Positions 27,489-54,107 of a stretch of DNA of 64,000 bases are shown piece after piece. The notes below the pieces were generated by a model, which was not told where the DNA came from, ran no database searches, and saw nothing but the letters and a program-made list of their open reading frames with translations. Every line of letters begins with the position of its first letter. The first letter of the stretch is position 1. A program made the position numbers and the translations under genes. Source of the stretch: a virus; the IMG/VR virus record IMGVR_UViG_3300045988_129435. One strand, written 5' to 3'.

Positions 27489-28613
27489 ATGGATTTCAAG
27501 GATCAAATTTTACAACTGTCAGACCGCATAAAAAAACAAAAAGATAGCATATCTACAGAAGAAGCCACAAAAAATGCTTTCATAATGCCATTGATAGCTT
27601 CTTTAGGTTATGACGTCTTTAATCCTTTCGAAGTTGTTCCGGAAATGGACTGTGACTTAATCAAAAAGAAGGGAGAAAAGATTGACTATGCTATAATGAA
27701 GGACGAAAACCCGATACTTCTTATAGAGTGTAAGCATTGCAAACAAGACTTGAATCTGCATGACACCCAACTACAAAAATATTTCGTAGCCTCTAAGTCT
27801 CGCTTTGGAGTCCTCACCAATGGCATAGAATACCGTTTCTATACCGATTTGGAGAAGGTTAACATTATGGATGAAAGGCCATTCTTAGTTGTAAATATGC
27901 TAGATCTGTCTGATGCAGACATAGAACAGCTGAAAAAATTCCACAAATCTTATTACAATGAAAACAATGTACTTAGCACAGCAAATGAATTAAAATACAC
28001 AACGGAGATAAAGGAAATTTTCAACAAAGAAATACAATCTCCTACATCTGATTTTGTTAGATTCTTTGCAAAACAAATATACACAACCGGGCAAATCACA
28101 CAAAAGGTAGTTGAAATGTTCACCCCGCTTGTAAAAAAGTCAATGTCTATGGTAATAAATGATATCATAGCTGAAAGGCTTAATACAGCAATGAAAAATG
28201 ACGAACAGGTTGAAGACACAACTAATATTTCTAGTAATTTACCTAATTCTCCCAAAGAAAATACAGAAAACAAACTACCTGAAGGGATAGTTTATATGGA
28301 TAAAGAAGCAGGGATTATCACCACACAAGAGGAAATGGATGCTTATAATATCGTGAGAAGCATACTTAGGCGTAGTGTAGACGCTTCACGGATTACATAT
28401 AAAGACTATAAGACTTATTTCGTTATAAGTTTAGACAACAGTCAATGGTATTGGATATGTCGTATTTCTATTGGAGCAAGAAAGAAGCAAATAGGAATAC
28501 CAGTAAACAAATACAAAAGCTGCGACTGGATTCAGATTGATAGCATAGATGATATATTCAAATATGCGGATAGACTTGAAGAATCAATTAAAATGGCAAT
28601 AGAAAAGTTGTAA
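27489..28613 (+). CDS. PD-(D/E)xK nuclease-like protein (type I restriction HsdR N-terminal-domain type) with an uncharacterised C-terminal domain
   Basis: 374 aa. EEATKNAFIMPLIASLGY...KIDYAI...ILLIECKH...GVLTNGIEYRFY matches the HSDR_N pattern, including the D...ExK core. Confidence 0.65.
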   Translation: MDFKDQILQLSDRIKKQKDSISTEEATKNAFIMPLIASLGYDVFNPFEVVPEMDCDLIKKKGEKIDYAIMKDENPILLIECKHCKQDLNLHDTQLQKYFVASKSRFGVLTNGIEYRFYTDLEKVNIMDERPFLVVNMLDLSDADIEQLKKFHKSYYNENNVLSTANELKYTTEIKEIFNKEIQSPTSDFVRFFAKQIYTTGQITQKVVEMFTPLVKKSMSMVINDIIAERLNTAMKNDEQVEDTTNISSNLPNSPKENTENKLPEGIVYMDKEAGIITTQEEMDAYNIVRSILRRSVDASRITYKDYKTYFVISLDNSQWYWICRISIGARKKQIGIPVNKYKSCDWIQIDSIDDIFKYADRLEESIKMAIEKL

Positions 28614-28632: not shown

Positions 28633-29130
28633 ATGAAGAAGAATATTTTATTATTACTGGCGGTGTTTATTTATTCAATAATGGGATTTGCTCAAGAAAA
28701 GAAAGAAGTTATCATTAAAGCTGGTACTGTTGTTCCTTTGGAAGCCATAAGTAATGTTAGAGCCTCTCAAGTACATGAAGGGCAGAATATCGATTTTAAA
28801 GTTTCTAGGGATGTTATTGTAGATAAAATAGTAGCTATTCCTGCTGGAACTATAGCTAAGGGAATAGTATATGAAGCAAAAAGATCGTCATGGTTTGGAA
28901 CTAAAGGAAGATTAGGTATTAAACTACGTTATTTAACTCTTTCATCCGGAGATAATGTAAACTTCTCATCTTCTGAAGTTTATATTACTGGGAAAAATCG
29001 TACTCCTCTATCAGTAGTAATCTTTTGTTTCACATGTCTTCCTCTTCCTTGTGGATCTAAAGCTGAAATGAAAATTGGTTATGAGTTTGATGCATCAGTA
29101 GCTAACAATACTACAATAACTTTAGAGTAA
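28633..29130 (+). CDS. Secreted hypothetical protein
   Basis: 165 aa with signal-like N-terminus MKKNILLLLAVFIYSIMGFAQE. Confidence 0.55.
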   Translation: MKKNILLLLAVFIYSIMGFAQEKKEVIIKAGTVVPLEAISNVRASQVHEGQNIDFKVSRDVIVDKIVAIPAGTIAKGIVYEAKRSSWFGTKGRLGIKLRYLTLSSGDNVNFSSSEVYITGKNRTPLSVVIFCFTCLPLPCGSKAEMKIGYEFDASVANNTTITLE

Positions 29131-29233: not shown

Positions 29234-29950
29234 TTAATCCCATTTCATAGCTTTTATCTTTGCCATGTTTTTCGGATCGTCCGCATTTACAAATGTCCTG
29301 TCATTGGAAATACGGGCTTCTTTCTTTTCTTCATCGGTAAGATATACTGAAGTAATAGTATCTGCCATCAACATTTGAAGAAATGAAAAACTAATTTCCC
29401 ACACAATCTGCTGTGGAGTCATGTTGAGCTTTTCACATGCTGGTAATATCAAAGAACCAAATACGCTTTTACCGCCAAAAGTGATAGAATTACCTTTTTT
29501 GTTTTTTATCATTGAGACTTTAGCTAGTTCTTTGCGTTCCCGGTCAATCCCAAAATATTTGATAAACTCATCGGTATTATCTTTAGTAAGCACTATAACA
29601 AGAAGCTGAGACATTTCTTCATTTGAAAGATTGTTTCTCAAAAACTGGCATCTACTATTTACAATTCTGCTATTAAATAGTTCTTCTTTCTTGTTGAGCG
29701 TATGATATGATAGTAGCTGGCAAACAATATCTTTTTTTTCTTGGCATAATCTTAAAGCCTCCATGTATGGGTTTGATTTTATAATATCAGCATTCATATC
29801 AAGGCTTTCAATAAGTCTTGAGAGTAGATACGTTTTGCCTAACGTTATTGGATATAGATAAAAATGTCGCTTATTAACCTGAAAGCCGTATGGCCTTTCC
29901 ATTATGGTATCAGCAATATTCATTTCTATTATTTTTCGATCTTCAATCAT
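29234..29950 (-). CDS. Tail assembly chaperone-like protein, assigned by position
   Basis: 238-aa ORF between the major tail and tape measure genes. Confidence 0.4.
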   Translation of the reverse strand: MIEDRKIIEMNIADTIMERPYGFQVNKRHFYLYPITLGKTYLLSRLIESLDMNADIIKSNPYMEALRLCQEKKDIVCQLLSYHTLNKKEELFNSRIVNSRCQFLRNNLSNEEMSQLLVIVLTKDNTDEFIKYFGIDRERKELAKVSMIKNKKGNSITFGGKSVFGSLILPACEKLNMTPQQIVWEISFSFLQMLMADTITSVYLTDEEKKEARISNDRTFVNADDPKNMAKIKAMKWD

Positions 29951-30151
29951 ATACTATTACCTTTTAGAAAACAAATTGGCTATCTTCACAGACCACCAAT
30001 TTCAGATTTGAACAAAAAGACCTAGAGCGGACTGATGGACCTGCACCATCCCCTTCACTCTGGTAGAGCGACGCACGCCTGTGTGTGCTTAATCCGCAAG
30101 TGTGCATCTATAAAGCAGATGCACAAAGGTTTAAACTATATCTATTGTAAA

Positions 30152-30703
30152 TTATCCGCCTATGCCGGAATTGGGGGCGACTTCAAACTTGTCTCCATCA
30201 CCGTCTTCGTCGTCCGGGTCACACTCTATTTTTGTAATAGATGATCCTGTTGTAGGAGTAACAATAATTTTACCCCATTGAACTTGTTTCTTTTCAGCGG
30301 CATATTTTAAAGCGTCAAATGTATATGCCCACACACCACCATCTGCACTAGTAAACGTATCTTCAACTGACACTGTTGTCTTTTCCATACAAAATCCAGG
30401 AACTTCGGGATCTTCCGGTTGTAGTGCAACAGCATAATTGTGAGCAACTACGCCATCACTGTCGTTGATAGGTCTTTTGCGGCCTTTTGCTGCACGTATG
30501 TTGAGTACAAGGGCATAGGTGTTTTTACCATACTTGACATCTTCATTTTCTCCACCTTCAATTTTGGCTTCTTGTTTGTCGCCTTTTGTTGTTGTCAACT
30601 GTGTGGAATCTTCCACGGGTGTAGGAAGCTCTTCCCATTTGGGCGAAGAAGCATCCAAGTCTTTTACGAAAATTCGGGGTTTACCCCATCCGATTACTGC
30701 CAT
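30152..30703 (-). CDS. Major tail protein
   Basis: 183 aa, positioned after the head-tail connector genes and followed by strong hairpins at 30034-30050 and 30101-30123. Confidence 0.6.
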   Translation of the reverse strand: MAVIGWGKPRIFVKDLDASSPKWEELPTPVEDSTQLTTTKGDKQEAKIEGGENEDVKYGKNTYALVLNIRAAKGRKRPINDSDGVVAHNYAVALQPEDPEVPGFCMEKTTVSVEDTFTSADGGVWAYTFDALKYAAEKKQVQWGKIIVTPTTGSSITKIECDPDDEDGDGDKFEVAPNSGIGG

Positions 30704-35701: not shown

Positions 35702-36058
35702 TTATTTTTTTCTAAACGGATTGAAATCAGGGTCTTCTCCTTTTTCCGACTCGTAACCGTCTAGAATAGCATTCGTGTTGGCTTCATCCTGCCATCGTTC
35801 AAAAACCACGCGATCGGATTCATCTTGCCGTTCGCGTTCTTCGGTTGTCATGGAATCATGCTTAGTGGCGATGCGTTTATCGATTTCTGCCCATCGTTCC
35901 TTATCCTTCATAGATTCCTCATGCAGTTTAATGAAATCCTCTTCTTGCATCTCCTCAAAGTTTTCAGTTGTATTCCAGTATTCTACACCTTTGTACTGGA
36001 AATGGATAACTCTACCATTTTTACCACTACGTTCTATAACTTTTACACCTTTTATCAT
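35702..36058 (-). CDS. Hypothetical charged protein downstream of the MuF-ART gene
   Basis: 118 aa with a 4-nt overlap onto the stop of 36055-38745. Confidence 0.55.
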   Translation of the reverse strand: MIKGVKVIERSGKNGRVIHFQYKGVEYWNTTENFEEMQEEDFIKLHEESMKDKERWAEIDKRIATKHDSMTTEERERQDESDRVVFERWQDEANTNAILDGYESEKGEDPDFNPFRKK

Positions 36059-44595: not shown

Positions 44596-45360
44596 TTATA
44601 CCTCCTCTTCTTTCAGTTCAAGCAAAAAGGCCTTGCAAATATCAATCATACGTGCAAAAGCCACCGTATTACTTTTTATATTAAATTTTTTCTTAACCTC
44701 TGTAGCTACCTTAATAAATTCTTCATAGGAGCCGACAACTATCGAACTATTTGCAGATATTTTCTGTTTTTCTAGTTCCGCTAGAACAGCTTTGACATCA
44801 TTGCTCCTACTTTCAGTAAACAAGAACTTCATTTCGGTAAGCTCTATATCCCCATCATTAATAGAGACCGTGGGAATCTTATTCGTATCAATAAATTGAA
44901 TGCCGTTAAGACCAGAAAACTCTCTTGCTTCAATAGTGCGCATCTCGCTATAAATTTCCTTAAGCATCTGAGCATCATCTTTGCCTACTAAAGCATTATG
45001 ACTAAGCACATAGGCAATCTGCTTGTCTTTATCAACCTCTTCAATATACAAGATTAAAATATATTCCAACTTAGCTTTAATGGCAGCTTTTAAGTGATGA
45101 TTTCCCGACAAAATGAGATATTTACCGTCATTTCGTTTCATCGCAAACGGGAGCTGAGATAAAAAACCGTCTTCAGCCACATTTGCTGTTAGTCTATCTA
45201 GTGTGCTTTTTTCCATATAGTGAGCATTCTTCTCCAACGGAACACAATCGTTTATAGGGCTTACATATGCTAACTTATATGGAGCAATCAACTTGTTTAC
45301 ATCATCCAGTTTCCCCTGAATAAGATGAACATCTTTCACTTCTTGTATTTTTTCAACCAT
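44596..45360 (-). CDS. ParB-like nuclease domain protein
   Basis: 254 aa. GKYLILSGNHHLKAAIKAKLEYILILYI fits the ParB N-terminal motif, with HH in place of HR. Confidence 0.55.
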   Translation of the reverse strand: MVEKIQEVKDVHLIQGKLDDVNKLIAPYKLAYVSPINDCVPLEKNAHYMEKSTLDRLTANVAEDGFLSQLPFAMKRNDGKYLILSGNHHLKAAIKAKLEYILILYIEEVDKDKQIAYVLSHNALVGKDDAQMLKEIYSEMRTIEAREFSGLNGIQFIDTNKIPTVSINDGDIELTEMKFLFTESRSNDVKAVLAELEKQKISANSSIVVGSYEEFIKVATEVKKKFNIKSNTVAFARMIDICKAFLLELKEEEV

Positions 45361-46637
45361 AATCTATATAAATCCTTTAATGAATCATCTAAAAAATTAG
45401 CAGAATACATTAGCTTGCCTTCATCTCGGCGTTCTAAATCAAATACTCCTCTATATTTCATTGAAATTGGGCTTGTTGTGTACACCGTGGTCTTCACTCC
45501 ATCGTAGTAGTTAGCCATTTTTCGGGCAATCAGCATTCTTACATTATGAGACTTAACAAGCATGATCAATAATTTACTCAATCTCTGAGTATTTGAGTTT
45601 ACAACAAAATCGCTTTGCATAAAAATCTGCTCAAGAGTAGAAAGTTTTTTGCTAAAAGAAGAAAAACCGAACGCTTTTCCATCAGCCATGAATACCAATC
45701 CCAAATCCCCACCAGTTGTATAGTTAACCTTATTTGCCATGTAAAATGCTTTATAGTAGTTCACATCACTAACTGGGCATATCTTTGCTGATATTTCTGT
45801 ACTATCTGTAAATTCATAATCCATAGGCAAAATATGAATACATGATGGCTTTATATTTTTATCGCGTTCAATGTAATAATGCTTATCCCGCTTTACACTA
45901 GAATAAGTGTATATCGGATTCTTACCAGGCCCCAAGTTTATCTTACCAACAAGGAAGTCGTTTATTTCCTGGAAATATCTATCAGAATAGATGATGTTTT
46001 CATCATTCTCAAGAAGACATTTAAACATCACCCCACCTTCTTTGGGGTCAAATACATTATAGGGAGCATGAGCATATCTAAAACTATCTTCTACATAGCT
46101 AAACATCTTCTCATATCCTCCTTTATAAGTGGGAGGAAAAGCAATACCTATCCCCTTACCTTTTTTACTTTTTAGGAAGTCAAAAAAATCGCCATAAAAG
46201 AAACTGCTTATATTAAAATTCAAAGCACCCTTTTCTAATTTCGATATGGTATTGTGATAATAAATGTCAGCCTGCTCTATAAACGAATTGAACATTTCCT
46301 CCTGATAATCATTCTTTCTTTGATGAAAGCCTGATACTCTCATGGCAAACATTACCTGAACAAGATTTTTATATCTTGTATCTTTCCAAGTATCAAAAAC
46401 CAGACGTAATTCAGGATTTACAACTTCAATATCTGTATTTGTGTCAAGCAGCAGATCAGAAATTAGCTTAGAATATAGGCTTACATCATTGGAATGTACA
46501 GTATATCCCATGTTGGACATAATTTTGTCGGTCGTGAAATTACCGGAACATCCGATAAAAACATCTTTCTTTTCTACGCCTTTCATTATATCTTGAAGGA
46601 GCAGTTTTACTTCAGGTGGTGTCGTTCCTTGGGACAT
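45336..46637 (-). CDS. Hypothetical protein, weakly DNA-methyltransferase-like
   Basis: 433 aa. N-terminal VFIGCSGNFT and an FPPTY tract loosely resemble motif I and motif IV (xPPY). The match is not canonical. Confidence 0.3.
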   Translation of the reverse strand: MSQGTTPPEVKLLLQDIMKGVEKKDVFIGCSGNFTTDKIMSNMGYTVHSNDVSLYSKLISDLLLDTNTDIEVVNPELRLVFDTWKDTRYKNLVQVMFAMRVSGFHQRKNDYQEEMFNSFIEQADIYYHNTISKLEKGALNFNISSFFYGDFFDFLKSKKGKGIGIAFPPTYKGGYEKMFSYVEDSFRYAHAPYNVFDPKEGGVMFKCLLENDENIIYSDRYFQEINDFLVGKINLGPGKNPIYTYSSVKRDKHYYIERDKNIKPSCIHILPMDYEFTDSTEISAKICPVSDVNYYKAFYMANKVNYTTGGDLGLVFMADGKAFGFSSFSKKLSTLEQIFMQSDFVVNSNTQRLSKLLIMLVKSHNVRMLIARKMANYYDGVKTTVYTTSPISMKYRGVFDLERRDEGKLMYSANFLDDSLKDLYRLWLKKYKK

Positions 46638-46874
46638 ATCAGTATATTTTACAAGTTATGTATGACTTCATACACTAATTTAGATTTAATGCCCTCCTGG
46701 CGTATTCCAGGAAGGCTTAAATACAAAATCAACCATTTCTTCAGCTACTTGCAAGAACACTTATACAGTATATTCGGCTTCTTTTCAGTCGTGTCAGATG
46801 GCTATTTCCATCACCCCCATAAACTGCACAAGTTTTTATGTTCTTGTTTTTGCTTATCGCTACTATAAGGGTTG

Positions 46875-46941
46875 AGGACGGACGGGATTTGAACCCGAAC
46901 TATAAAGGTTAACCGGTATTTATAGCAGACCACACCGCCCA
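46875..46941 (-). ncRNA. tRNA-like element e: acceptor stem 6/7 bp, T-arm with loop TTCAAAT, central 7-bp hairpin CTATAAA-N12-TTTATAG instead of D and anticodon arms
   Basis: Folded by hand from the reverse complement. It is 67 nt long and has no canonical anticodon loop. Confidence 0.3.
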
Positions 46942-47050
46942 TGTGCTGTTTTATTTGTGGTATTAAAAACAGCAAAAACTAACCACGCTCATTTCAATGT
47001 TTTTATTGAAGGAATCCGAAAATAGAGCGAAAAACAACGTTCCCCATTGA

Positions 47051-47114
47051 GAGATAAGCAGGAGTCGAACCTGCACCTTCCGTCCAAGAAGTCTTATCGG
47101 AATGAAGTTATCTC
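47051..47114 (-). ncRNA. tRNA-like element a: perfect 7-bp acceptor (GAGATAA/TTATCTC), perfect T-arm GCAGG-TTCGACT-CCTGC, only 33 nt in between
   Basis: Folded by hand. It is 64 nt long. The best central hairpin, CTTC-TTGGACG-GAAG, is not a canonical anticodon arm. Confidence 0.35.
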
Positions 47115-47216
47115 AATTAAGGATAATCCTATTTAACCGATTTATGAAGCGTCTTCCAATTTCGCCATACCACCAAATTTGCGTGTCTTTCCACGCTGTC
47201 AGATTGCACAGACCCA

Positions 47217-47289
47217 GCTAAAGAAAGGAATCGAACCTTTCTGCCATTTACCATAATCTCAATCACCGAGCCGACTTGAACGGCATTTG
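47217..47289 (-). ncRNA. tRNA-like element c: perfect T-arm (G)AAAGG-TTCGATT-CCTTT(C) and D-arm-like GCCG-TTCAAGT-CGGC, with no convincing acceptor or anticodon pairing
   Basis: Folded by hand. It may be a degenerate tRNA. Confidence 0.2.
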
Positions 47290-47290
47290 A

Positions 47291-47359
47291 GCGGAAACAG
47301 GGAATCGAACCCCACTCTTTGGCTGGAATGCCAACGCTCTGCCGATGAGCTATTTCCGC
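47291..47359 (-). tRNA. Near-canonical tRNA, Gly(UCC)-like, with a 6-nt anticodon loop
   Basis: GCGGAAA-TA-GCTC-ATCGGCA-GAGC-G-TTGGC-ATTCCA-GCCAA-AGAG-TGGGG-TTCGATT-CCCTG-TTTCCGC. All four stems pair, but the anticodon loop is ATTCCA, one nt shorter than the usual 7. Confidence 0.55.
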
Positions 47360-47445
47360 AAATGCTTGTCTCTTCCAAGCTGCCAATGGTTTCCGTTTTC
47401 AATTGACGTGTGTATCCATAACCATAAAAAGCCTCACACATATCT

Positions 47446-47850
47446 TTAGAACAAACTTGCTTGTTCATACTTAGGTTCTTTCTTTTCAACAACTCCAAAC
47501 TCTTTGATTTCAATGCCAGTCTTTTCGGTAAGCCATTTTGCAAGTATGTGGCGATGGCAGAAATCACCTGGTTTCTCATAGCAGCATAGAGCAACATCTT
47601 GGCCATCACTTAATGTCTTTATTTGCTCCACCACCTTCTTCGCATCTTGACTTTCAAGAATATTGTTGTATAATCTAAGATACTCATCATGGGAACATGC
47701 GGCACTTATCATATACCTTGTTGGAGCCACATTAACCATTTGTGGTACTCCACTAATAAATCTTGGCCGTCCAATAGCTACGCAAATAATTTTAATTCCT
47801 GCTTCTTTTAATTTTCGGCTATTACCGAAATAACTTGTGTAAATTTTCAT
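47446..47850 (-). CDS. DUF488-like protein
   Basis: 134 aa. MKIYTSYFGN... and ALCCYEKPGDFCHRHILAKWL fit the DUF488 pattern. Confidence 0.55.
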   Translation of the reverse strand: MKIYTSYFGNSRKLKEAGIKIICVAIGRPRFISGVPQMVNVAPTRYMISAACSHDEYLRLYNNILESQDAKKVVEQIKTLSDGQDVALCCYEKPGDFCHRHILAKWLTEKTGIEIKEFGVVEKKEPKYEQASLF

Positions 47851-51881: not shown

Positions 51882-54107
51882 TCAGACTACGTTAATATTC
51901 ATTTTCTCTTTCGTAAAGGATAGGATGTGCACAATAACATCCACCGTCCATCCGTTGCCTAGCATTCGGTACTGCTGCGTGTCGGAACATTCCCATTTAT
52001 ACCAGGAAGGAATAGTCTGAAGGCGGGCGCATTCGGTAGGAGTCAGACGACGAATCCCTGCAATTCCCGTGAGAGGCGAATCCTCTTCTACAATCATTCC
52101 TACATGAGACGCAATATGCGTATCTGATTTTTGATCGGTATATAAAATTGTACCGTACTCACTTACTCCGGATTTCCTGTAATCCCCTCTATGAGGACGT
52201 ATTCCTCTGTCTGTATACGAAACTCCTTTGACTCTAACATCTTCCACTATCAAATTTTCCTTTCCATCCTTATAGCATCTCGCCAGTAAAGTATTGCTCT
52301 TTAAAGTTGGGAATTGCGCTCCAAACCCGTTCCTTTTTTCCGTATGTCTTTGTTTGTGATTCATTATGTCCGAAATGGCTTTATTACTCATATAATATTT
52401 CTCGTCCACTTCATCTTCAAGGATATCTTTCAACAAAAATCCCTTATCCGCAGGCTGCGGTATGTCAGAATACAAATCATCAAACAAACCATCTCTTTTC
52501 GTCCTAATATTCGTCCAATAGATACGTCTCCGATTCTGTGCCGATACCAAGGCAGAATTGATATGCACGCCATATATCCCAATTGCGTTACTCAGTACCC
52601 GTTCCCACTTCTTCCCCATTTCCACGTTTTCCAGCAAGAACAGCACATTCGGATTATATTTACGGATGTCAGTCAGAATACGCATATACTCCCAAAACAG
52701 ATAAGACTCCCCTTCGAATTGAAAGCCTTCTTCTTTTAATTCCAGGTAGCGATCCAGAGTGTATATCTCTTCTTTATCCACAGTAGACATCCCGACACGT
52801 TTGCCGGCAAAAGAGAATGACTGACAATTATGTACAACGAAATTATTTGCAGTATAAGAATTATCTTCCTCGACTTCAAGATTGTAAACCGTTTGCATTT
52901 TATATGCAGTAAACGACTTTACGTTTGACCACATTTTATCACCTATCGTTTTTGCCTTATCGTATCTCCTTTCTTTTTCTGAAAAGGATATTATATATTG
53001 CTTGTTCTGACGCACTGTTCTTCCTAGAAGCTTTTTGTGTTCCGCAGGTGTGTGTTTACCGACATTTATATGACTATTATAAAGTTTAGAAACAACACGC
53101 TGAATCGTGATTGCCAACATAGGGCTTATTGTCGTTATGTGCCATTCATTGCCATCTATACACCCGTCACCATCAAGAAACCCTTTCAGTACGATTGACA
53201 ACAAATCTTTTGGCAGTCTAACTATCGCTTCCCCAAAATGCTTATTTATAGAACCAATACCACAATACTTTTCTACTAGTTCAACTAACCTTTTATTGCT
53301 GAACACAATGCGATGGACGCTATCTCCGTGCTTATAGCAACTATAATTTAACTTGTCTATATTGGAGCAAAACTGTTCTACTTTTGAATTTCCGATACTT
53401 AGTATAAGCTGCCATGCTCTGCTTCCTTTGTGGTATTCGTCATACCTTTTGTCTTTCCTTGTATGTCCGCCTGCGATATATCTGCCTATTACATAGGCTT
53501 CGTCTTTAGTGATATTGTACGGATTTTCGGATAGGTCATTCTGTATGTTTGAACATATATAATAATCTCCCTTAAGTAACCCAGCGTTCACCCACTCGGC
53601 ATCTCCCAATATGACACGTGCAGACTTTTTCCCATCGTCTTTTCTATAATATTCTTTATATTTCTTCCGGGCGTAAAAAGGATGATTCTTTGTGCAGACA
53701 ACATCAACAAATCCTTGCGCTTTTAACGTATAGGTCATGGCTTCCTTATGACCTATAGCTAAAACAGGCATATATCTGTTATTGTGGGTGAGAACCTTGT
53801 CACCAACTCTTATATCTTCAATGTCTTTATACCCAACATCGGTCAACACTTTGACCCCTGCCGCAAAGCAAGGACTGCCCCCTATCAACAGGTCAATTGG
53901 TTCTAACTTAGACACATCTACCTGAGTGACATCTCCGAGCTGGATTGTATCCGGGAAATTGAGCTGCGTCTGCTTGATGGCATGCTTGTCTATCTCAGAA
54001 GCGTAATACTTTCCCGGGATAATGCCAAGCTGCTTCAAAGCAATCTGACCGCAGGACATGCCATCGAATAAACTTAGTACATTCATCTCTGATTTGTTAT
54101 ACTCCAA
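51882..54107 (-). CDS. DNA (cytosine-5)-methyltransferase interrupted by an intein
   Basis: Motif I LSLFDGMSCG, motif IV GGSP[intein]CQSFSFAGK, motif VI FLLENV, motif VIII QNRRRIYW, motif X LGNGWTV. Confidence 0.9.
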   Translation of the reverse strand: MEYNKSEMNVLSLFDGMSCGQIALKQLGIIPGKYYASEIDKHAIKQTQLNFPDTIQLGDVTQVDVSKLEPIDLLIGGSPCFAAGVKVLTDVGYKDIEDIRVGDKVLTHNNRYMPVLAIGHKEAMTYTLKAQGFVDVVCTKNHPFYARKKYKEYYRKDDGKKSARVILGDAEWVNAGLLKGDYYICSNIQNDLSENPYNITKDEAYVIGRYIAGGHTRKDKRYDEYHKGSRAWQLILSIGNSKVEQFCSNIDKLNYSCYKHGDSVHRIVFSNKRLVELVEKYCGIGSINKHFGEAIVRLPKDLLSIVLKGFLDGDGCIDGNEWHITTISPMLAITIQRVVSKLYNSHINVGKHTPAEHKKLLGRTVRQNKQYIISFSEKERRYDKAKTIGDKMWSNVKSFTAYKMQTVYNLEVEEDNSYTANNFVVHNCQSFSFAGKRVGMSTVDKEEIYTLDRYLELKEEGFQFEGESYLFWEYMRILTDIRKYNPNVLFLLENVEMGKKWERVLSNAIGIYGVHINSALVSAQNRRRIYWTNIRTKRDGLFDDLYSDIPQPADKGFLLKDILEDEVDEKYYMSNKAISDIMNHKQRHTEKRNGFGAQFPTLKSNTLLARCYKDGKENLIVEDVRVKGVSYTDRGIRPHRGDYRKSGVSEYGTILYTDQKSDTHIASHVGMIVEEDSPLTGIAGIRRLTPTECARLQTIPSWYKWECSDTQQYRMLGNGWTVDVIVHILSFTKEKMNINVV
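52827..53870 (-). mobile_element. Intein (348 aa) with a LAGLIDADG domain inserted at the PCQ catalytic motif of the C5-methyltransferase
   Basis: Residues 80-427: block A CFAAGVKVLTDVGY, block B TKNH, LAGLIDADG-like VIGRYIAGGH and LKGFLDGDGCIDG, block F VYNLEVEEDNSYTA, end VVHN then +1 Cys of CQSFS. Confidence 0.88.

Follow-up and report, generated by a model that had tools for sequence, protein, structure and literature searches.

The stretch of viral DNA considered here (the window) comprises the 64,000 nucleotides (nt) of IMG/VR record IMGVR_UViG_3300045988_129435. It is a tailed-phage genome or prophage that encodes a portal, a major head protein and both the small and large terminase subunits, nearly all on the minus strand. 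An 808-nt gap without open reading frames (ORFs), at 46638-47445, separates a DUF488 gene from the gene of a two-domain enzyme that joins a DAM-like domain to a GNAT domain (DAM-GNAT). This gap holds an array of tRNA-like elements, here lettered a, c, d and e, of which element d resembles tRNA-Gly(UCC) and has an anticodon loop of 6 nt. A ParB_N-like gene closes the cassette and the terminase genes follow it. Bacteroidales are the likely hosts, judging from homologues of the neighbouring enzyme, whose sources include Barnesiella and Paludibacter. Searches of the region against public phage records with megablast and blastn gave zero nucleotide matches. The features of the cassette, together with a second Gly-like RNA elsewhere in the window, are as follows.

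47446-47850, minus: DUF488 gene (N3a subclade), first gene of the cassette (Pfam PF22751, 4.9e-12)
47290-47359, minus: element d, tRNA-Gly(UCC)-like RNA (ARAGORN, Rfam, covariance model R1, RNAfold, relatives)
47269-47285, minus: hairpin UGCCG-UUCAAGU-CGGCU with a T-loop-like loop, 5 nt past d, part of the c-type module
47224-47240, minus: element c, orphan T-arm AAAGG-UUCGAUU-CCUUU, its 3' acceptor strand without a partner in the window
47075-47174, minus: e1-type 5' part with acceptor strand GGUGGUA (47168-47174), a tRNA-Leu-like D arm and some central domain (alignment with relative L013)
47051-47114, minus: element e, with the 7-base-pair (bp) pseudo-acceptor GAGAUAA...UUAUCUC, a central hairpin and a T-arm (RNAfold; alignment with L013)
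46875-46940, minus: element a, D-armless mini tRNA-like RNA (fold; compensatory changes)
46691-46716, minus: conserved 10-bp hairpin with an AAUACG loop, 53 nt before the DAM-GNAT start codon, in two variants among relatives
45336-46637, minus: DAM-like (PF22555) plus GNAT-phage-like (PF22559) two-domain enzyme, 433 amino acids (Pfam; AlphaFold2 model)
44596-45360, minus: ParB_N-like protein, final gene of the cassette (PHROG ParB-like matches)
44103-44594: terminase small subunit, after the ParB-like gene
42578-44119: terminase large subunit, after the ParB-like gene
30026-30097, minus: second tRNA-Gly-like RNA (model R1, 56.9 bits, E 2e-9)

Element d and its second copy

A preliminary description of the gap had noted four minus-strand T-arm signatures, and these are real and clustered. 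The motif GGTTCRANTCC occurs exactly four times in the 64 kb, where 0.07 occurrences are expected, at 46885-46895, 47061-47071, 47227-47237 and 47301-47311, always on the minus strand; not one shuffle out of 100 gave four. The same description had folded element d by hand into a full cloverleaf like tRNA-Gly(UCC) with a 6-nt anticodon loop, a structure on which ARAGORN, Rfam and RNAfold agree. The acceptor stem of d carries G1-C72, C2-G71 and G3-C70 followed by discriminator U73, while the D loop (GG) and T loop (UUCGAUU) are canonical. In the minimum free energy cloverleaf from RNAfold the anticodon arm is UUGGC-AUUCCA-GCCAA, with 5 bp closing a 6-nt loop in which the UCC triplet is present. 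CCA is not encoded, the trailer being CAA.

ARAGORN reported the element at 47289-47359(-) as 'tRNA-??? (tc)', that is, with a 2-base anticodon and a 6-nt loop. Rfam RF00005 scored it at 50.5 bits against a gathering threshold of 29, with one loop base deleted in the alignment, and the family model R1, introduced below, scored it at 68.3 bits. Element d thus has the cloverleaf of a canonical elongator tRNA, above the RF00005 threshold, but not the 7-nt loop with U33 and unpaired 32-38, having instead AUUCCA closed by a C-G pair. A 7-nt loop could be forced by the mitochondrial mode of ARAGORN only through mismatched stem pairs, and that fold was rejected. The identity set for glycyl-tRNA synthetase (GlyRS), namely G1-C72, C2-G71, G3-C70, U73, C35 and C36, is complete in d and in the second copy; G3-C70 also belongs to the bacterial GlyRS set. 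The remaining members of the set are documented bacterial GlyRS identity elements (PMC7826273).

Querying with the DAM-GNAT protein yielded 54 related IMG/VR loci (73-100% identity). The same tRNA with its 6-nt loop was found in 53 of them (77-100% enzyme identity), drawn from many metagenomes, as 10 sequence variants. The loop reads AUUCCA in every variant bar one, which has GUUCCA, and the closing pair varies between C-G, U.G and, at two loci, C.A. The sole exception, L051, has no array and a DUF488-enzyme gap of only 5 nt. The octamer CAUUCCAG, which is the C-AUUCCA-G of the window, recurs in L176 and L190 (60% and 43% enzyme identity), in both on a stem 1 bp longer. Because the loop length is identical in 53 contigs and 10 variants, and because the family described below combines covariation with invariant identity pairs, the notion that d is an assembly error or a pseudogene is, at the level of sequence, largely refuted. 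Decay, one of the explanations first offered for the array, therefore fails for d, while it fits element c, which is truncated, and element e, which is a deletion chimera.

The second copy was missed by ARAGORN, and by Rfam even at E<=10. It has the acceptor G1C2G3/C70G71C72 with U73, a non-canonical T-loop (UGCAGGU) and the anticodon arm UCGCU-CUACCAG-AGUGA, which RNAfold can fold to 7 bp with an ACC triloop. It lies within the late structural module, between the ORFs 30152-30703 and 29234-29950, and is conserved in 23 IMG/VR viral contigs. Pfam, PHROG and PDB searches gave no informative match for the adjacent ORF 29234-29950.

A Gly-type family in distant homologues

An alignment of enzyme homologues provided a distant set made up of 65 loci at 20-64% identity, in GTDB genomes of many phyla, and 25 more viral loci; the set searched, window included, held 91 loci with 20-73% enzyme identity and 664 kb. 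A structural parser was written to recognise G1C2G3...C70G71C72-U73 together with a T-arm and a stem of 5 bp whose loop, 5-8 nt long, includes CCA. Across the 91 loci it found 20 Gly-type elements on the gene strand against a single one on the other strand; shuffled sequence gave none. R1, the covariance model built from the parser elements, scored above 50 bits in 18 loci, in all of them on the gene strand. ARAGORN found few tRNAs in the distant loci, and nearly all were Gly, with UCC in L062, L082, L093, L113 and L170 and CCC in L172-L174. Its only non-Gly finds were one Arg(CCU) and one Pro-like RNA (L120), to which R1 added a second Pro-like RNA in L112.

Most positive loci have the element in the gap between the DUF488 stop codon and the start of the enzyme gene, and in 11 of 16 such loci it begins 1-12 nt past the stop codon. 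The usual spacing is 1-77 nt from the DUF488 stop and 27-577 nt to the enzyme start codon, with the element on the same strand; in L093 it is located 3' of the ParB-like gene. DUF488 occurs in 68 of the 90 distant loci, upstream on the same strand in 51 of the 83 with sufficient upstream sequence, and a ParB_N-like gene (~255 amino acids) in 82 of 90, mostly downstream of the enzyme gene. Where the DUF488-enzyme gap measured 100-130 nt and gave no tRNA match, it contained ordinary hairpins and no tRNA remnants.

Pairing holds in 95.6% of the cells of the family alignment and double changes occur in 18 of 21 pairs, which 0 of 500 shuffles equalled. Pairs 2-71 and 3-70 are invariant, 1-72 is G-C in 23 of 25 rows, and U73, C35, C36 and A37 are likewise invariant. 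Position 33, by comparison, may be U, A, C or G, position 34 may be U, A or C, and 32/38 are mostly a closable C and G. The loops read CAUUCCAG, CAUCCAG, CCACCAG, CUACCAG, CGACCAG and UGUCCAG, that is, 7 or 8 nt as written and 5-6 nt if the C-G pairs. T-loops are often non-canonical (CUCACGG, UGCAAGU, GUCACU, UGCAGGU). The RNAs of L061 and L185 are near-identical and differ in the loop alone, CGACCAG in the one and the canonical UUUCCAA in the other. Since the identity set is invariant or nearly so while the decoding features vary, selection on this family, as read from the alignment, acts on synthetase recognition and not on decoding.

The two Pro-like RNAs occupy the same position beside very divergent DAM-like homologues (Prevotella, Eubacteriales):

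L112:2784-2855: Pro-like tRNA-like RNA
L120:2835-2906: Pro-like tRNA-like RNA, after the DUF488 gene and with CCA encoded

Both have C1-G72, A73 and the loop C-AAGGG-G, which we take to be a ProRS-type identity set, and the sequence of this loop hints that it too is non-decoding.

The other tRNA-shaped RNAs of the arrays

Elements a, c and e all went uncalled by ARAGORN and Rfam at default settings, element d being the one tRNA that these tools called in the array. At its 80% threshold ARAGORN gave poor, mutually inconsistent calls for the three elements, which were discarded. All three, like the second copy of d, lie below the RF00005 threshold. For a and e, RNAfold nonetheless reproduces the acceptor and T-arm with one central hairpin that had been described.

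Element a is an intact, small and conserved tRNA-like RNA. It has a 6-bp acceptor GGGCGG/CCGUCC comprising G1-C72, G2-C71 and G3.U70, then a central hairpin of 7 bp and the T-arm CGGG-UUCAAAU-CCCG; CAAC comes after U73. A G3.U70 pair is the signature determinant for AlaRS; the discriminator here is U73, not A73. The element is found in the window, L002, L013, L050 and L003, and between the window and L013 the changes in its central hairpin are compensatory (CTATAAA/TTTATAG vs CTATGAG/CTTATAG).

Element c was correctly described as lacking an acceptor stem, the motif scan returning its T-arm at 47224-47240 plus the T-loop-like hairpin at 47269-47285, for which several relatives have a counterpart at an equal position relative to the c T-arm. 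L009 and L054 contain ~225-240 more nt upstream of c, with a candidate 5' acceptor strand there (GCTAAAG/CTTTAGT in L009), and the T-stem covaries (AAAGG/CCTTT vs CAAGG/CCTTG). By these alignments c is a truncated remnant of a longer tRNA-shaped module.

Element e, on the same kind of comparison, is a chimera of two larger tRNA-shaped RNAs, e1 and e2, that are intact in relatives. Relative to L013 the window lacks exactly 193 nt, and the chimera follows from the position of the deletion junction, which sits inside GTGCAGGTTCGA, a sequence repeated in the T-arms of e1 and e2. The e1-type piece at 47075-47174 has thereby had its own 3' acceptor strand deleted, and the 3' half of the T-loop and the 3' acceptor strand of element e derive from an e2-type RNA. 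Intact copies are located as follows, with like elements in L009, L012, L036, L046, L049 and L054.

L013:3274-3398: intact e1
L013:3403-3591: intact e2

RNAs of the e1 type are 121-168 nt long, with an acceptor GGUGGUA/UACCACC-A (A73) and a tRNA-Leu-like D arm, and they score 38-40 bits against the Rfam tRNA model (40 for the L013 copy), a 65-nt insert replacing the anticodon stem-loop. Their central domains are entirely different between relatives. With introns allowed, ARAGORN read e1 as an intron-bearing tRNA-Lys(CUU), a weak candidate as the 53-80-nt inserts stood at differing positions and the anticodon arms were non-homologous between the two types. RNAs of the e2 type are 188-190 nt long; their acceptor GGGAUAA/UUAUCCC covaries to GAGAUAA/UUAUCUC and their T stem GCAGG/CCUGC to GUAGG/CCUAC. 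These large RNAs may be natural tRNA scaffolds bearing other RNA domains.

The combination of an acceptor and T-arm (with a D-arm in e1) and a replaced anticodon arm makes a, e1 and e2 similar to the tRNA-like domain of transfer-messenger RNA (tmRNA) and to mascRNA, to which there were weak Rfam matches. At permissive thresholds Rfam returned nothing but tmRNA T-arm fragments and chance matches. The fragments were 15-17 nt long and scored 9.7-12.1 bits against thresholds of 47 and 84, and ARAGORN reported no tmRNA. Bacterial YrlA and the small stable RNAs of the T4 tRNA cluster are other tRNA-shaped RNAs that do not decode. Elements a, e1 and e2 differ from all of these in having no match at the Rfam threshold and in size (66, 121-168 and 188-190 nt), context and sequence.

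The arrays, compared across relatives, are mosaic and hypervariable, with the DUF488-enzyme gap ranging from 5 to 1784 nt. In some relatives a canonical tRNA-Cys(GCA) or tRNA-Phe(GAA) lies 5' of the 6-nt-loop tRNA:

L003, L004, L006, L008, L036, L040, L041, L044, L045, L048, L050 and L009-L011, L014, L015, L017, L021-L023, L033-L035, L047, L049, L052: loci with tRNA-Cys(GCA) or tRNA-Phe(GAA)

A candidate glycyl carrier and its alternatives

AlphaFold2 models of the enzyme (predicted local distance difference test score, pLDDT, 87) have a methyltransferase-like N-domain and a GNAT C-domain. The GNAT fold is borne out by Foldseek, with probability 1.0 to many GNATs and a target-normalised template modelling score of ~0.5. 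Homologues of the enzyme span many phyla. In their alignments the N6-adenine methylase motif DPPY reads FPPTY, and the GNAT beta4-alpha3 loop reads NS..T.KLSKLL, not the CoA-binding motif Q/RxxGxG/A. Neither the whole enzyme nor a profile of its GNAT domain matched a solved structure by sequence.

A phage GNAT with a tRNA substrate was reported in 2026, when Mu Mom was found to glycylate adenine N6 in double-stranded DNA from Gly-tRNAGly, making N6-carbamoylmethyl-adenine; its authors noted that the donor is not readable from the fold (PMC13219725). As Mu Mom uses Gly-tRNAGly, the generality of the linkage between tRNA-Gly and DAM-GNAT was tested on the distant loci described above, and 80 viral loci collected with the Mom (PF25680) alignment served as an independent check. 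On the same strand these 80 loci had no tRNAs except canonical tRNA-Gly(UCC) genes, which immediately precede mom in three Mu-like viral contigs:

L268:2806-2879: tRNA-Gly(UCC), CCA encoded
L269:2800-2873: tRNA-Gly(UCC), CCA encoded
L273:2724-2797: tRNA-Gly(UCC), CCA encoded

L263 additionally holds a truncated tRNA-Gly remnant at ~2730-2789. Thus an enzyme with proven use of Gly-tRNAGly has likewise acquired a tRNA-Gly gene in this position. Searches of the literature found no paper on 6-nt anticodon loops in phages, none tying PF22555/PF22559 or mom to phage tRNA genes, and nothing on the function of DUF488.

The evidence points to a role absent from the preliminary description, that of an accessory RNA integral to a DUF488 / DAM-like+GNAT / ParB-like DNA-modification cassette. 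With modest confidence, we favor the reading that d and its second copy are phage-encoded tRNA-Gly derivatives that serve as dedicated glycyl carriers for the adjacent DAM-GNAT enzyme and are poor decoders. Its observed basis is the structure, conservation and covariation of the RNA, the identity elements it has kept, the decoding constraints it has lost and its tight genomic linkage. The array would be co-transcribed in a late operon running from DUF488 through the array, DAM-GNAT and the ParB-like gene to the terminase, after which host RNase P and 3'-end enzymes would excise the RNA and the host CCA-adding enzyme would finish its 3' end. Charging by host GlyRS would be expected, because every one of the bacterial Gly identity elements listed above is kept. 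The 6-nt loop closed by C-G would make a poor ribosomal substrate, leaving a pool of Gly-RNA separate from translation. The GNAT domain would then move the glycyl group to the adenine N6 presented by the DAM-like domain. A Mom-type product (N6-glycyl to carbamoylmethyl) or a related hypermodification would result, protecting the phage DNA just before packaging.

More tentatively, and as a possibility that we would not yet call probable, the order DUF488 / tRNA-like RNA / DAM-like+GNAT / ParB-like could represent a widespread, undescribed tRNA-dependent system of phage DNA aminoacylation with its own translation-orthogonal carriers. These would be mostly Gly, with a parallel Pro type in L112 and L120, and would have shed decoding and kept synthetase recognition, while e1, e2 and a would be tRNA-scaffold RNAs with other payloads or amino acids.

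Several points weigh against the glycyl carrier. The RNA is dispensable: the DUF488 and enzyme genes abut (<=16 nt) in 24 of the 51 loci that have DUF488 upstream on the same strand, and L051 has no array, so the RNA is an accessory and not an obligatory part of the cassette. Ordinary tRNA-Cys and tRNA-Phe genes stand in related arrays, the intergenic site doubling as a general landing pad for tRNA genes, and 15 kb separates the second copy from the enzyme gene. Because d keeps canonical D and T loops, it may bind EF-Tu and the ribosome. The enzyme does not belong with Mom, as Mu Mom matches PF25680 and the window protein PF22555 and PF22559 only, and no relationship between the two was detected by BLASTP or hhalign (probability 0.09%). 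The best 50 Foldseek matches of the whole enzyme and of its GNAT domain consist of generic acetyltransferases that depend on CoA; Mom, FemX and TacT are not among them. As the GNAT domain lies outside the Mom family and its structural neighbours depend on CoA, the models leave acetyl-CoA a possible donor. Processing, charging, ribosome exclusion, glycyl transfer and the DNA product are all steps that we infer.

The main rival is a tRNA mimic that donates no amino acid and acts in the regulation or processing of the cassette transcript. It would be a regulator or assembly factor binding DUF488, DAM-GNAT, the ParB-like protein or GlyRS, or an RNase P/Z site setting the 5' end, stability or translation of the mRNA of a toxic enzyme, comparable to the control of mom by Com. 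The same-strand position between the DUF488 stop and the enzyme start would suit such a role, as would the many cassettes without the RNA and an array interior in which no sigma-70 promoter, no Bacteroides-type (TAnnTTTG) promoter and no real terminator was found. The hairpin at 46691-46716, 53 nt before the start codon, is conserved and covaries, several compensatory changes separating its two variants among relatives, and by analogy with Com and mom in Mu it may control translation or processing. A cis processing signal, however, would need no full GlyRS set, and C35 and C36 are invariant across phyla. The second copy lies 15 kb off in another module and the L093 element past the ParB-like gene, and the genes in the equivalent place before mom are canonical, clearly chargeable tRNA-Gly genes. 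We judge the mimic unlikely on balance.

Less likely still is the idea, raised in the preliminary description, of a decoding tRNA-Gly that escapes a host anticodon nuclease or other tRNA-targeting defence and so sustains phage translation. Phage tRNAs with anticodon-loop substitutions have been proposed to evade tRNases (PMC10264068), and d does keep a canonical acceptor, D loop (GG), T loop and UCC triplet in arrays that, among relatives, include ordinary tRNA-Cys and tRNA-Phe. The published cases, though, are substitutions within 7-nt loops, and here the loop length is altered and U33 and N34 are unconserved in the family. The A33, C33 or G33, the A34 ('ACC'), the closable C32-G38, the loops of 5 to 8 nt and the odd T-loops are hard to square with decoding, and nuclease escape does not predict that Gly-type RNAs should be linked, in many phyla, to a single enzyme family, nor that they should accompany mom.

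A decoy or sponge that would occupy host enzymes targeting Gly-tRNAGly or tRNA bodies, such as TacT-type GNAT toxins or tRNA-cleaving defence nucleases, with the other tRNA-shaped RNAs as decoys for other factors, seems improbable. TacT-type toxins do target Gly-tRNAGly (mentioned in PMC13219725), tRNA shapes with an acceptor and elbow and without decoding features would bind such enzymes, and hypervariable arrays are what an arms race would produce. A decoy leaves unexplained the fixed place in the DUF488 / DAM-GNAT / ParB cassette across unrelated hosts and the same association with mom, and no partner defence gene was identified. Decoy, processing punctuation and nuclease-resistant tRNA, the three functions first proposed for the array, found no specific support, and the nuclease-resistant decoder and the decoy explain the linkage less well than a glycyl carrier does.

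Functionless tRNA pseudogenes or an assembly artefact are very unlikely. Elements c and e are demonstrably truncated or chimeric and a, c and e are rejected by standard finders, but for d the same loop length in 53 independent contigs and 10 variants, the strong covariation with invariant identity pairs, and the octamer CAUUCCAG kept in L176 and L190 all argue the other way. tRNA loop-size mutants can shift the reading frame, and the 6-nt loop of the window and the 8-nt loops of L176 and L190 might suggest a recoding tRNA (doublet decoding or frameshift suppression), which we regard as the least credible of all, since the window showed no gene that would require such an event, the ORFs flanking the array are intact under the standard code, and family loops vary in size and sequence with only C35, C36 and A37 kept.

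Related systems and further features of the window

The closest functional parallel to the proposed glycyl carrier is in Staphylococcus aureus, where non-proteogenic tRNAGly(UCC) isoacceptors are the glycine donors for FemX/FmhB, FemA and FemB (PMC7826273). Both they and d are of Gly type with the GlyRS determinants kept (G1-C72, C2-G71, U73, C35, C36; PMC7826273), the staphylococcal tRNAs have features impairing use by EF-Tu and the ribosome and d has features that may do so, and a GNAT-fold aminoacyl-transferase outside translation is served there and proposed here. The staphylococcal tRNAs are chromosomal, confined to a single bacterial lineage and used in cell-wall synthesis, and they deviate in the D- and T-arms with an anticodon loop of normal length. 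Element d is phage-borne and lies in a DNA-modification cassette; what deviates in it is the anticodon loop, with 6 nt closed by C-G, its D and T loops being canonical. The comparison is functional only and implies no common descent, d belonging to a Bacteroidales host lineage and not a staphylococcal one.

Like Mu Mom, which was shown to take Gly-tRNAGly as donor (PMC13219725), the window enzyme is a phage GNAT-fold protein, encoded late and near the packaging stage, and its gene, like some mom genes, has a tRNA-Gly(UCC)-type gene upstream. It departs from Mom in that its GNAT domain, PF22559, is joined to a DAM-like domain and its gene has DUF488 and ParB-like neighbours, and the two have no profile-profile similarity. 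Mom reportedly accepts any Gly isoacceptor among the host tRNAs. Next to mom the tRNAs are canonical; next to DAM-GNAT genes they mostly are not. The tRNAs of van den Berg et al. 2023 are likewise phage-encoded with altered anticodon loops; those, however, are decoders with 7-nt loops and point changes at cleavage sites, while the d family varies in loop length, does not conserve U33 or N34 and is tied to one enzyme family.

If the carrier reading is true, tRNA-dependent DNA hypermodification would extend from Mu Mom to a second, unrelated GNAT family (PF22559 plus DAM-like), one that prophages of gut Bacteroidales, Planctomycetota, Chlorobi, Leptospira and others commonly carry. Viruses would then encode tRNAs for a job outside translation, which bears on why phages carry tRNA genes and would explain 'broken' tRNA calls (tRNA-???) in phage annotation. 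Such RNAs would be natural chargeable tRNAs withdrawn from decoding, useful for orthogonal-tRNA engineering. Family-specific covariance models detect tRNA-like genes that ARAGORN and Rfam miss.

Three further features of the window were recorded outside the cassette. A C-5 cytosine DNA methyltransferase at 51882-54107 (-) is split by an intein, with Hint and intein-splicing matches within its DNA_methylase domain. The protein of 896 amino acids encoded at 36055-38745 (-) is head-morphogenesis-like and also matches PHROGs labelled ADP-ribosyltransferase (Bxa) and head maturation protease, so that a polyvalent virion protein is a possibility. Two plus-strand genes, at 27489-28613 (+) and 28633-29130 (+), interrupt the minus-strand structural module. 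The first encodes a type I restriction HSDR_N nuclease-like domain, and the pair looks like a moron or defence insert.

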